A stretch of 64,000 nt of DNA from Minisyncoccota bacterium (lineage in GTDB: Bacteria > Patescibacteriota > Minisyncoccia > Phycocordibacterales > CSBR16-119): NCBI GenBank assembly GCA_041389105.1, contig JAWKSO010000002.1:18336-82335 (forward strand), given 5' to 3'. Below, one piece after another: positions 59,700-62,433 of this stretch (within the stretch, counting starts at the first letter, position 1; every line of letters begins with the position of its first letter). The notes under the pieces were generated by a model. The model had not been told where the DNA came from. It was given only the letters and a program-made list of their open reading frames with translations, and did no database searches. The translations under genes and the position numbers were made by a program.

Positions 59700-59897
59700 C
59701 ATAAAAAACAGTAGTGCCTTTCGGCGCTTTTATTTTTTGAGCGGGGAGATGAGCTAAAAAGCACTCGCGTGCTTTGCGTGCGGGAATCGAAAGGCGCAGG
59801 TATATTTTTGTTTGAGCTTTGCGAAAGGCAAAAATACCGAGCCGGGGTCGCGAAATTTTTCCGTCAGGAAAATATTTGTGACCGATCCGCAATCTTT
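59700..59897 (+). repeat. tmRNA-3'-end-associated structured insert, copy B (family 1)
   Basis: Terminator at 59713-59739. GGGGAGATG (59743-59751) and GCGGGAATCGAA (59780-59791) are reverse complements of the tmRNA acceptor 3' strand and T-arm. Also has a GCAC-TCGC-GTGC hairpin, the core GAGCCGGGGTCG, a TTTTCC/GGAAAA hairpin, and GTGAC followed by a degenerate tmRNA 3' end CGATCCGCAATCT. Confidence 0.65.
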
Positions 59898-60102
59898 CTT
59901 ACATTTGACTTATAGTCTAAGTCAAATTTTCTTTGATTTTTTAATCCAAATAGTTTTAGATTTATTTATCATCTAATCTCTGGCATTCTTTTTCATGAAG
60001 TATCTGTTAGATATTTAAAGAAGACTTTAAAATAGATATTATTAAAGCTCGGACATTAAAATTCGTATTCCAATCGAAGCTCTTCTGCTTGTATCTCTAA
60101 TG

Positions 60103-61102
60103 TTAGAATATCAGAATTGTAGGTCTCAAACCTGAGCCTTCCGAGCCTCCGTTAGATGTAATTGTATCTCCAGGAATAATCAAATAATAATCATGATTAA
60201 ATTGTTTTGTTCTATCAAGAATTAATCTTTCAATATCTCTACGATTACTACTATATTCGTTAGTTAAATCATTAATAATTTCATCTCTGGTTGGAGGTGG
60301 GTCATTTACCGGCTCTGGATTAAATACCTCTATAGAACATTCAGTTTCTTTTTTTCTCTCCGGTACTCTTTATTTCTGCAAAATCCAAGCCGTATTTACC
60401 TCTTTCTTTAAAAATCTAAACGAGTAAATTCCAACATCATATTTCTCTCATATGCAGAACTTATCCAAGCAATATCGTAGTCTTTTATATCTCCAAAGCT
60501 TGGAGTTAATTTAATTTTAAATTCCTCACCAACCCTAATAATATTATCAGCGACCAAGTATGGCGAAATATGTAAATTTTAGATTTTCTATGGTTAATTT
60601 TTCAAACAGGTGCATACTATTGGTAAGGACGTTATGTAGTAGTAACTGTTGGTTTTACTATATTTTTATCGACTTTTTTAACTTCATATCTTCCATTAAA
60701 ACTTCTGATTACTTCCGTATCTTGAACTTCATCATTTAAAAAAACATTTTCTTCTATTTCTAGCTCTTTTTTTATCCAGGTCAATCAAAGACAATTCTTT
60801 ATTTATCAACTCTTTTTATATCTCCATTCAGATCATTTGATATATTTTTTAATCTTTTTTGTATTTCTATTAATTTTATTTTTAAATCAATTTTAGAGAA
60901 TTCATTTGTCTCTAAATTAAAAGAATTAAACAGATTTTTATTAATCTCTATTAACTTTTCAGCTTTTTTTCTCTTTAGAGAAAGCAAAAGGAAACTTCCT
61001 GAATAAATCCACTATTTTTACGATTAATATCTTGAGCGTGCGAAACGGTTGGTAGTAAGTTAACTAAAGAAACGCTGTTATAAATAAAGTTTTTATTTTC
61101 AT
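60103..61102 (-). pseudogene. secreted protein paralog 2, heavily frameshifted
   Basis: Signal-peptide-like start MKIKTLFITAF.., an internal ...ECSIEVFN... motif shared with paralog 1, and many stops and shifts. Very AT-rich. Confidence 0.4.
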
Positions 61103-61144
61103 ACTATATCACTATTTAGTTTATAAGCTCGTTCTTAATTAAAA

Positions 61145-62070
61145 ACTTGTATTGGGCATTCAAATTCTTTTCTTCACCTGTATCTCTTACTTTTTTGCAA
61201 TAAAAGATAGGCTGTATTTACCTGTCTTTGGAATCCTAAAAGAATATATTCCGTCATCATATATTTTTCTTTATAAGCTGAGCTTTCTTGCCAAGATATA
61301 TTATAATTCCTTTAATTTCTCCCAAATTTGAGTCAGCTTTAACTTAAAATAATCTCCGGCAACTATCGCATTATTTGGGGGACCAAACACATAGAACATC
61401 TAAAATTTAAATTTTCCAAACTTATTTCTTCCAACTGATTAGTCTCAGGGATACAACCGCCAGAGGCCGGAATCAAAATGGCCGAAGTGTATCCGTCCTT
61501 ACATGAATGAATTATTTTAGTAACAGGATCAAAAATATAATACTTACCATTAAATTCGTAATTTGTAACCACCCAATCATAAGAAGAAATATTATTCTTA
61601 TATTCAGAACATTCCATACTTTTCTTTTGTCTAAGAAAATCTGATTGACCACAGTCTAAATATAGGGGTTAGAGTCAACCCAAGATCAGAATAAATACAG
61701 ATAAATTTTTTAGGTTTAGGTTTAATATAACTTTGATAATAAACACTATTACTTGACCTTTGACCTAAATCATATATACTTTTTCCAAATTACAATAATC
61801 TTTATCAGTTACGTACAAGCTAGCGGGTATCCCATTTAGACCCCCTGGTTCCATAGGAATCATTATACAAACCATCACTAGGTTTATATCCATAATTATC
61901 ATATTTTAAACCATTTGGATTACTTCTAACATGAGGAGCTTACATAAGTACCATTGCTTTTATAGTAACCCTTAACGCTAACATGTTTTACGAGTTCTTA
62001 TTTAAATTAAAGCTTGTAAAAATAAAAGTCCAAAAATAAAAAAACTTAGCGTTTTAATAAAATATTTCAT
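61145..62070 (-). pseudogene. secreted protein paralog 1, heavily frameshifted
   Basis: Start MKYFIKTLSFFIFGLLFLQA, includes ORF 61363..61617, and ends ...EFECPIQVFN-TAA. DNA-level similarity to 60360-60560 is visible by eye. Confidence 0.4.
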
Positions 62071-62208
62071 ATATTTAATGATACGGATTAACCTTGCTTT
62101 GTCAAACGGTTTAATATCTCTATTGTGTCTTTAAACTATTGCAAATACTCACTGTTTTATATACTCGCTCACCAGCTGATGCTCACTTAAAAACAAAAGC
62201 TCCTAGTT

Positions 62209-62433
62209 GGTTCGAACTTTTCTTAATATGTCCACACCCTAAAATATTAGTGCCTTTCGGCGCTTTTATTTTTGAGGGAGATGAGCAAAGCACCTGCGTG
62301 CTTTGCGTGCGCGGAATCGAAAACCGCAGCGTTATGCGAATTCTATGTTATCGCGAGGTGGGGTCGAGAGTACTTAGATTTTTCGAGCTTGTCGAAGAAA
62401 AAAGCGCCAGTAACTCGTGACCGATGATCCGAC
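62209..62433 (+). repeat. decayed ssrA 3'-end copy plus structured insert, copy C (family 1, chimeric)
   Basis: GGTTCGAA...TCCACA (62209-62236) is a degenerate tmRNA T-arm and 3' end. 62248-62339 is about 85% identical to 59712-59800 (copy B left half). 62352-62421 is about 80% identical to 27517-27584 (copy A right half). It ends GTGACCGATGATCCGAC. Confidence 0.6.

Follow-up and report, generated by a model that had tools for sequence, protein, structure and literature searches.

Protein-less structured elements at the 3′ flanks of tRNA and tmRNA genes in Patescibacteria, and their array at an ssrA locus

The ssrA locus and its inserts

The stretch of DNA considered here, called the window throughout, comprises 64,000 nucleotides (nt) of contig JAWKSO010000002.1 from a Minisyncoccota bacterium, in which the transfer-messenger RNA (tmRNA) gene ssrA is followed by an array of short inserts and displaced copies of its own 3′ end. 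Two of these inserts, elements B and C, and a third, element A, located behind a tRNA-fMet gene, are members of a large family of protein-less elements of ~170-220 nt that are found in Patescibacteria at the 3′ flanks of tRNA and tmRNA genes and always share the strand of the gene. The genes of the window are ordinary housekeeping genes.

The intact tmRNA gene (59321-59700, plus strand; found by ARAGORN and by Rfam family RF00023) comes directly after smpB (58818-59261) and encodes the tag GKSNGLVKSPFQMKRGFALA. Only 59321-59700, and none of the inserts, belongs to RF00023 (119.3 bits, against a gathering score of 47). The 3′ segment of the gene, from T-loop nucleotide C56 to the 3′ end, is called X and lies at 59682-59700 (plus strand). 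Element B begins immediately behind it, on the same strand, with a left module (59701-59741) that reads as an A-tract, a hairpin GTGCC/GGCGC and a T-tract, and is thus terminator-like; homologous modules occur in C and in L115, L159, L160 and L013 (L numbers are handles for comparison loci). The inverted copy of X follows at 59743-59791, as recognized by direct reading and by the family analysis. It starts with GGAGATG, complementary to the acceptor 3′ strand, is interrupted by a tetraloop hairpin (59753-59779) and continues with GCGGGAATCGAA, the complement of the T stem 3′ strand and the T loop. The conserved core (59792-59882) consists of an arm Pa, the box GGGGTCG, an arm Pc/Pb and a terminal GTGAC; it is identified by covariation, by its fold and by a score of 77.3 bits with the covariance model (CM) R1 of the family. 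Behind it lies ‘end 2’ (59883-59903, plus strand), a displaced or duplicated tmRNA 3′ end reading CGATCCGCAATCTTTCTTACA, and then a second hairpin (59905-59931).

The next segment (59932-62208) is an AT-rich islet of 2.3 kilobases (kb), with a guanine-plus-cytosine (GC) content of 28-31% against ~37% elsewhere. It contains two tandem decayed paralogous genes on the minus strand, which start near 62075 and 61105 with signal-peptide-like N-termini and are interrupted by many stops and frameshifts. Their C-terminal parts are related in blastn (68% over 218 nt, E 1e-9) and in tblastx (5e-7). The profile search that had been suggested for these two pseudogenes gave no result, none of the broken gene fragments matching a Pfam family. 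The islet is missing from L115, L159, L160 and L161.

Beyond the islet, on the plus strand, come ‘end 3’ (62209-62236), a decayed tmRNA 3′ end of the form GGTTCGA...TCCACA, then element C (62237-62421), with a left module, an inverted X bearing one deletion and a core ending in GTGAC (CM R1, 71.2 bits; an ortholog is found in L115), and finally ‘end 4’ (62422-62434), a tmRNA 3′-end remnant reading CGATGATCCGACA. C is an older, decaying copy. B (59701-59903) and C (62237-62434) are 85.4% identical over 96 nt (E 7e-24), and C and A (27397-27604) 82.4% identical over 74 nt (E 1e-13). An earlier note, based on the letters of the window, had given the same order from tmRNA to end 4, the same similarities (about 85% and 80%) and the same description of the islet, and all of these hold.

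The note had also considered ends 2 to 4 as degenerate copies of the tmRNA 3′ end. Smith-Waterman alignment to that end, evaluated against 20,000 random windows, bears this out for end 2 (P=0.006) and end 3 (P=0.027), while end 4 is not significant alone (P=0.17). By sequence alone the three ends would count as only marginally tmRNA-like, and it is position and orthology that make the case for all of them: in the family, the repeat of the gene end always comes after GTGAC, end 3 sits where L115 has its tmRNA 3′ end, and the L115 ortholog of end 4, CGATCCGCCATC, is a clear copy of the tmRNA 3′ end. No additional tmRNA homology was found upstream of end 3.

Two further copies lie at tRNA genes of the window. 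Element A (27397-27584, plus strand; CM R1, 71.3 bits) follows tRNA-fMet (27324-27396, plus strand; X at 27377-27396) and is composed of a terminator hairpin, a partial inverted X (CGTGGTG ... GCTGACTCGAA) and a core ending in GTGAC. Behind it, the last 20 nt of the tRNA gene are repeated directly and without mismatch (27585-27604, plus strand, equal to 27377-27396), and next comes a strong hairpin (27612-27640), which is probably the original terminator of the tRNA-fMet gene. Element A is identical in the sibling assemblies L177 and L178. A fourth, divergent element (26712-26885, minus strand), recognized from its repeat, stands behind tRNA-Asp (26886-26960, minus strand). A terminator comes first, then the inverted T-arm copy GATGGGACTTGAA and a core that differs from the others and includes GGGGTCG; 17 nt of the tRNA 3′ end are then repeated perfectly, with another terminator behind them. 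This element is barely detected by CM R1 (8 bits). Elements are thus present at three of the eight confirmed tRNA or tmRNA genes of the window (tRNA-fMet, tRNA-Asp and tmRNA).

Distribution of the family

A, B and C share the boxes TCGAAAG..CG(G/C)AG, GGGGTCG and GTGACCGA, a combination that occurs three times in the window against 0 expected. In the smpB neighbourhoods of relatives, an element follows the tmRNA in L014 and L021, and a divergent form does so in L015. A stricter version of the conserved pattern, run on metagenomes, gave at least 120 loci. Among the 121 matches listed, 95 have a tRNA on the same strand that ends 27-94 nt upstream of the TCGAAA box; these tRNAs cover 19 amino-acid specificities, and several of the remaining matches follow tmRNA.

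CM R1 was built from 119 distinct cores. It finds exactly three copies in the window (77, 71 and 71 bits; the next best match has 9 bits) and 149 matches in a search of 100 loci. On one contig as many as four of six tRNAs carry an element, and sites between the tRNAs of an operon are among those occupied. The model gave no match in the non-Patescibacteria loci that were fetched, nor in the phage-pattern matches. A phage-borne form of the element was considered and rejected: a looser pattern yielded 12 matches in IMG/VR, in GC-rich coding DNA or in a jumbo-phage tRNA array, and none of them matches the model. Several core families appear to exist. At L124:10682-10860, behind tRNA-Leu(taa), an inverted acceptor copy, a tetraloop hairpin, an inverted T arm and TCGAAAAG are followed by a quite different core.

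None of A, B and C contains an open reading frame (ORF) or matches an Rfam 15 family at the gathering score; up to an E-value of 10, the only match is one of 29 bits to tmRNA_permuted, due to the inverted acceptor copy. Group I and II introns, ribozymes, omega-RNA and HEARO-type RNAs are rejected on the same ground, as no Rfam 15 covariance model matches. There is no conserved neighbour protein either, since any given family is found near at most nine of the 120 element loci listed. A literature search gave no description of such elements, which, its coverage being incomplete, is weak negative evidence.

Anatomy and folded structure

Along the tRNA strand the order is X, a hairpin trailer, the reverse complement of X, the core and a direct repeat of X (X′), and the conserved unit begins with either the left hairpin or the tetraloop hairpin and has GTGACCGA at its right end. 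The trailer hairpin is terminator-like, with a T-run, in 37 of 87 family copies. The inverted copy, which can be read in A, B and C and which the previous account of the locus had missed, is the exact Watson-Crick complement of X from nt 54 to about nt 73; it is contiguous in 13 copies and split by a ~25-nt tetraloop hairpin in some 20 others. Informative positions favour a complement of X over a copy of the tRNA 5′ strand by 29 to 7, and deviant T loops are followed faithfully (TTCAAAT gives ATTTGAA, and TGCGACT gives AGCCGCA). The core, of ~100 nt and two arms, begins with AG(G/C)CG(G/C)AG and ends with GTGAC. X′ starts at T-loop nucleotide C56, agrees with X at 18/18 positions in 38 of 87 family copies and is usually followed by the apparent original terminator of the gene.

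The right junction is untidy: fillers of 10-21 nt, indels of 1-3 nt or truncated repeats occur right after GTGACCGA, and many of the X′ copies that seem decayed owe this look to junction indels, fillers or truncations. Imperfect X′ copies show no pairing bias in their substitution spectrum, which speaks against selection for pairing in decayed X′.

The core folds into well-defined arms. Arm Pa has a three-base-pair helix (R-S-C/G-S-Y), an internal loop (G-S-A/G-A) and a variable hairpin, while arm Pc/Pb combines an invariant GGUCG/UGACC with a covarying hairpin. Over the core and its closing helix, the paired fraction of alignment cells is 91.4%, whereas column shuffles give 74.1%, with 0 of 500 reaching the observed value, and slid partners 29-42%; the covariation score is 0.47 against 0.17, and a single pair may be AU in 38, CG in 37 and UA in 36 cases. 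G·U pairs are common (42 at one pair) and A·C oppositions rare, which indicates that it is the tRNA-sense strand that folds, either in RNA or in top-strand DNA. Pairing is also possible between the inverted copy and X′ and gives a helix with the sequence of the neighbouring gene’s acceptor and T stem, in which a hairpin takes the place of the D and anticodon arms and the core that of the T loop. The minimum free energy fold of B has exactly this family shape (z -3.1); A is also structured (z -2.9), and C is decayed (z -0.09).

Two ways of explaining the resemblance to tRNA were tried and rejected. A chargeable tRNA or tmRNA mimic with G3·U70 is contradicted by the inverted copy, which has A3 (A3-U70) in every tRNA-Ala and tmRNA case. 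Nor does a primer-binding site of the retroviral kind, which would end at nt 58, agree with a copy that reaches nt 54 and follows the genomic trailer rather than CCA.

Constraint at the RNA level

A perfect X′ tends to accompany an imperfect inverted copy, and vice versa. In copies with a terminator-like hairpin between the tRNA and the inverted copy (n=37), X′ has at least 17/18 identities in 35% and the inverted acceptor at most one mismatch in 57%; in copies without this hairpin (n=50), the proportions are 64% and 30% (Fisher P=0.0097 for X′ and 0.016 for the inverted acceptor). Orthologous copies in L119 and L128 differ in which partner survives, and orthologous copies at tRNA-Arg(CCG), whose cores have diverged, all keep X′ at 18/18.

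Read-through transcription probably extends from the tRNA into the element. Such a trade-off would be expected if, in the putative read-through RNA, the tRNA had to be protected against the inverted copy, for which a terminator or an intact X′ acting as a decoy would each suffice.

Stacking and strain variation

The history of the array is best followed by comparison with close relatives. The metagenome contig L115 is 94% identical to the window through smpB and tmRNA. Its tmRNA is followed directly by a full-length ortholog of C and then by the DNA that stands after C in the window (82% and 79% identity), so that 59800-62228 of the window is extra. Since C is shared with L115, it would have come first at ssrA, followed by the 2.3-kb islet and then by B, next to the gene. 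The right junction of the islet (..CTAGTT|GGTTCGA) lacks a GTGAC end, and the islet may therefore have come by another route. The DNA that follows C (62435-64000) is also decaying, with a frameshifted gene for a small membrane protein and a frameshifted DUF1761 gene; the counterparts look intact by eye in L115 and are called full-length in L160 and L161.

Five assemblies with identical SmpB, 98-99% identical through the tmRNA, each have a different flank. L159 carries a C-type left module joined to a truncated B-type core and then unrelated DNA. L160 has the left module up to ..GGGAATCGAA and then a DUF1761 gene. In L161 a different hairpin region is followed by a gene for a 79-residue GIY-YIG protein, the stop codon of which abuts the last 21 nt of a C-type core and X′. 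L162 has no element, and the contig of L163 ends inside the tmRNA.

Similar situations are found elsewhere. Many other loci have three or four direct copies of X, spaced by 140-330 nt and separated by non-identical cores, and arrays contain decayed members such as C and a stub in L013. In L119, tRNA-Cys and tRNA-Leu are separated by 19 nt; in L124 the same gap contains an element, with X′ followed by a spacer of native length. Cores that are 92-96% identical occur at pairs of different tRNAs (Phe/Gly, Arg/Ala, His/Gly and Pro/Leu), and in each case both arms fit the local gene. In one such pair the left hairpin is also homologous, and in another X′ resembles the other tRNA beyond the T arm.

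These comparisons support a model in which successive insertions at the T loop or 3′ end would push older material outward. The stacked events and displaced 3′ ends proposed in the note are supported by the tmRNA-C order of L115, by the arrays of X and by the flank differences between siblings. Its view of C as a chimera formed by module exchange stands in part: exchange is seen in L159, while the chimeric look of C is mostly family anatomy, because B and C share a left part that is specific to their target, the tmRNA, and A and C share a right part that is a widespread core subtype.

GIY-YIG cassettes in the same niche

For the GIY-YIG protein of L161 there are more than 700 homologs; where an organism is named, it is one of the Patescibacteria or an unclassified ‘bacterium’. 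In all contexts examined in which a tRNA-like gene was detected, that gene is tmRNA or tRNA-Ala(CGC), and the GIY-YIG gene follows it at 100-180 nt on the same strand. These cassettes (L161:2009-2455; ORF at 1501-1740 in L164, L165, L167, L168, L170 and L173-L176) share a non-coding left part, CCACCA|CTTCGC-hairpin-CTTCGCGGTGC...GAAGTGGTG...TATAAT. Ahead of the ORF are repeats complementary to the gene end (GAAGTGGTG), and behind it the gene 3′ end is directly repeated (33 nt in L167). The R1 structured core is absent from them. Related cassettes are found within tRNA-Glu and tRNA-Ser genes (L093:543-937 and L059:8203-8612), with a duplicated tRNA 5′ segment upstream of the ORF (in L093, 543-577 repeats 865-899), the counterpart of the duplication seen at 3′ ends. 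In the window, no GIY-YIG ORF was found by tblastn or with a hidden Markov model. A relative related through SmpB has, behind its tmRNA, a non-coding left part of GIY-YIG type (L016:733-900; CACTTCGCC..hairpin..CTTCGCGGTGCGCGCAC..AAGTGGTGGACCCCGCGAAACTTTAGCGAAGTGGG).

Origin of the elements

The reading that is preferred here, with a probability of about 60%, is that A, B and C are non-autonomous insertion elements that target tRNA and tmRNA genes at the T loop or 3′ end. An insertion would land in the T loop or at the 3′ end, keep the gene intact and leave the old 3′ end outside; repeated hits would give arrays. The complement of T54 is the last nucleotide of the inverted copy and C56 the first of X′, and the conserved palindrome TTCGAA offers microhomology at both boundaries of the core. 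Together with the imprecise junctions and the fixed orientation, these features fit a copying process. The elements might spread by copying guided by homology or microhomology, during break repair or by template switching of a DNA polymerase or a reverse transcriptase. Of the two portable homology arms, one would be the body of the tRNA and the other X′ or the conserved bases of the T loop. The enzyme would be supplied in trans, and the small GIY-YIG nucleases of the same niche are candidates.

Several observations weigh against this reading. No transposition intermediate, enzyme or clean empty/filled pair of a simple element was found; there is no clean empty site for A, which is fixed in the three assemblies seen. 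Near-identical cores could result from gene conversion among resident copies rather than from new insertions, and the strong conservation of core structure, across 40-78% GC, also fits a host function. As for the nuclease, GIY-YIG genes occur only in L161, L093, L059 and L022 among ~150 loci that bear elements or are related through SmpB, and the ends used by the family examined are all of Ala type; its connection with the ORF-less elements is circumstantial, a lead rather than a result.

The earlier note had taken the inserts for products of integration into a tRNA-like gene. In its classical form, this model would make each insert a tyrosine-integrase element, or the remnant of one, whose attachment site carries the segment from T loop to 3′ end. 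The direct repeat of this segment and the regenerated gene are indeed those of known tRNA and tmRNA islands, and the 2.3-kb islet, lying between two copies of the 3′ end and without GTGAC at its right junction, may have arrived via integration. For A, B and C, however, classical conservative integration does not fit, and this explanation is quite unlikely. The family is protein-less, structured and spread over 19 specificities, and no integrase is present among the 25 most frequent Pfam families listed for the ORFs of the window or beside the 120 loci listed. One fixed attachment sequence is incompatible with more than 20 targets at which the arms change while the cores stay 92-96% identical; the fillers and indels of the right junction are unlike conservative recombination; the inverted target copy is left unexplained; and covariation points to a folded single strand. 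A host-serving RNA would account for the purifying selection on structure. Such a cis-acting 3′ trailer, active in tRNA 3′ processing, termination or quality control, would be inherited with each tRNA and homogenized by gene conversion. The retention of X′ in copies without a terminator, in which the inverted acceptor copy is weaker, agrees with this, as do the intact X′ of the tRNA-Arg(CCG) copies and the elements inside tRNA operons. That only some tRNAs are occupied, that arrays hold decayed members such as C and the L013 stub, that the ssrA flank varies between strains and that the tRNA-Cys position is empty in L119 and filled in L124 nevertheless make this explanation improbable as well.

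A retroelement similar to short interspersed elements (SINEs), in which a read-through RNA with a tRNA-like helix would be reverse transcribed by target priming or by snap-back and template switching, could draw on the tRNA-like closing helix at the RNA 3′ end, on the resemblance of the inverted and direct target copies to copy-back or template-switch products, on the junction fillers and on the lack of a DNA transposase nearby. It is given little chance, as no reverse transcriptase occurs among those same 25 Pfam families, no protein family lies beside more than nine of the 120 element loci listed (the neighbour clusters being unannotated), and the inverted copy follows the genomic trailer instead of a CCA-ended mature tRNA and runs to nt 54 without stopping at 58. 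An assembly artefact, in which population variants would have been mis-joined at the shared 96-nt left module to give B-islet-C, could be suspected as none of the five sibling assemblies reproduces the exact arrangement. Misassembly is very unlikely, since end 3 is decayed and differs from the true tmRNA end at many positions, and reads from a tmRNA-C variant cannot create it. The left modules of B and C are, moreover, only 85% identical, L115 confirms C and the downstream DNA, and L159 confirms the B-type core.

Relation to known systems

The elements belong to the theme of tRNA-targeting insertion elements, the best-known examples of which are genomic islands that occupy tRNA and tmRNA genes and carry a tyrosine integrase; such islands, including tandem arrays at ssrA, are reportedly covered by the surveys of K. 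Williams. As in islands, the 3′ part of the gene is targeted, the gene is regenerated, the old 3′ end remains as a direct repeat flanking the insert (a perfect 20 nt at A) and stacking proceeds outward. Unlike islands, the elements measure ~200 nt and contain no integrase or other gene, have near-identical cores at more than 20 target genes, contain an internal inverted copy of the target, end in an imprecise right junction and carry a conserved folded, RNA-like core. Free-standing GIY-YIG homing endonucleases, such as those of the phage T4 seg genes, are known for intronless homing. The GIY-YIG cassettes share with the elements their niche and a partial duplication of the tRNA gene that keeps it functional, and in L161 a cassette abuts a remnant of a C-type core; the window elements nonetheless have no ORF, and the cassettes no R1 core.

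Integron attC sites and the attP site of CTX phage are recombination sites that act as folded single strands. The elements have the same topology (direct copy, loop, inverted copy, cargo, direct copy) and the same strand-specific folding with G·T or G·U pairs, but here each new target is the template of the inverted repeat, and what is conserved is the ‘cargo’. SINEs and R2-type target-primed retroelements, as well as the tRNA-like 3′ ends of retroplasmids and viral RNAs, offer another comparison. Like the former, the elements are non-autonomous, have a tRNA-like terminal helix, duplicate their target with untidy junctions and are predicted to be co-transcribed with a host RNA gene; they differ in being bacterial, in having arms re-derived from the target and in lacking a poly(A) or other tail.

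Bacterial miniature repeats include miniature inverted-repeat transposable elements (MITEs), repetitive extragenic palindromes (REP), bacterial interspersed mosaic elements (BIME) and palindromic elements derived from IS200/IS605. The elements are likewise small, structured, multi-copy and devoid of coding capacity, yet they have no fixed terminal inverted repeats, a strict single orientation behind tRNA genes and a target duplication of roughly 20 nt. A MITE was rejected because the only inverted repeat is internal and derived from the target, and because the duplication, of ~18-30 nt, is not short and of fixed length. Strand-specific hairpins and boundaries after ..CGA(A) would fit an element of IS200/IS605 type; a long target duplication is present, and no TnpA or TnpB was seen among the Pfam families listed for the window or among recurring neighbours.

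Other segments of the window

Two segments of the window may be recorded beside these elements. At 47444-49655, on the minus strand, two genes for tRNA-Ser, which have the anticodons ACT and GCT and both match tRNA well, stand 2.1 kb apart. They have a common repeat across their 3′ flank and 3′ end and enclose a GC-rich segment (43-47%) of short ORFs, which may be another tRNA-gene insertion. At 17438-18495, ~1 kb without a long ORF has a raised GC content (44.7%); ARAGORN reports an odd ‘tRNA-???’ at 17700-17770, and no Rfam family matches this segment even at E 0.01.

Implications

Genes for tRNA and tmRNA are classic landing sites of mobile DNA, and their known users bear integrases; the user described here is a structured element without genes. 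In the Candidate Phyla Radiation, it accounts for genomic tRNA 3′-end fragments and long palindromes that would otherwise be puzzling, and its covariance model provides annotators with a conserved RNA of ~100 nt that is missing from Rfam. In the minimal genomes studied here, the flank of ssrA is a hot spot of strain-level variation.

A further, tentative possibility is that the elements form a new class of mobile DNA, made only of a structured RNA-like core, with arms rewritten from the T arm and acceptor of the target tRNA at each insertion. Such a class might retarget itself to tRNA 3′ ends, be driven by a trans-acting enzyme and be abundant across Patescibacteria. Re-templating of the arms for each target, if true, would amount to a programmable choice of site without a gene for a guide-carrying protein in cis, and would point to an unknown enzyme.

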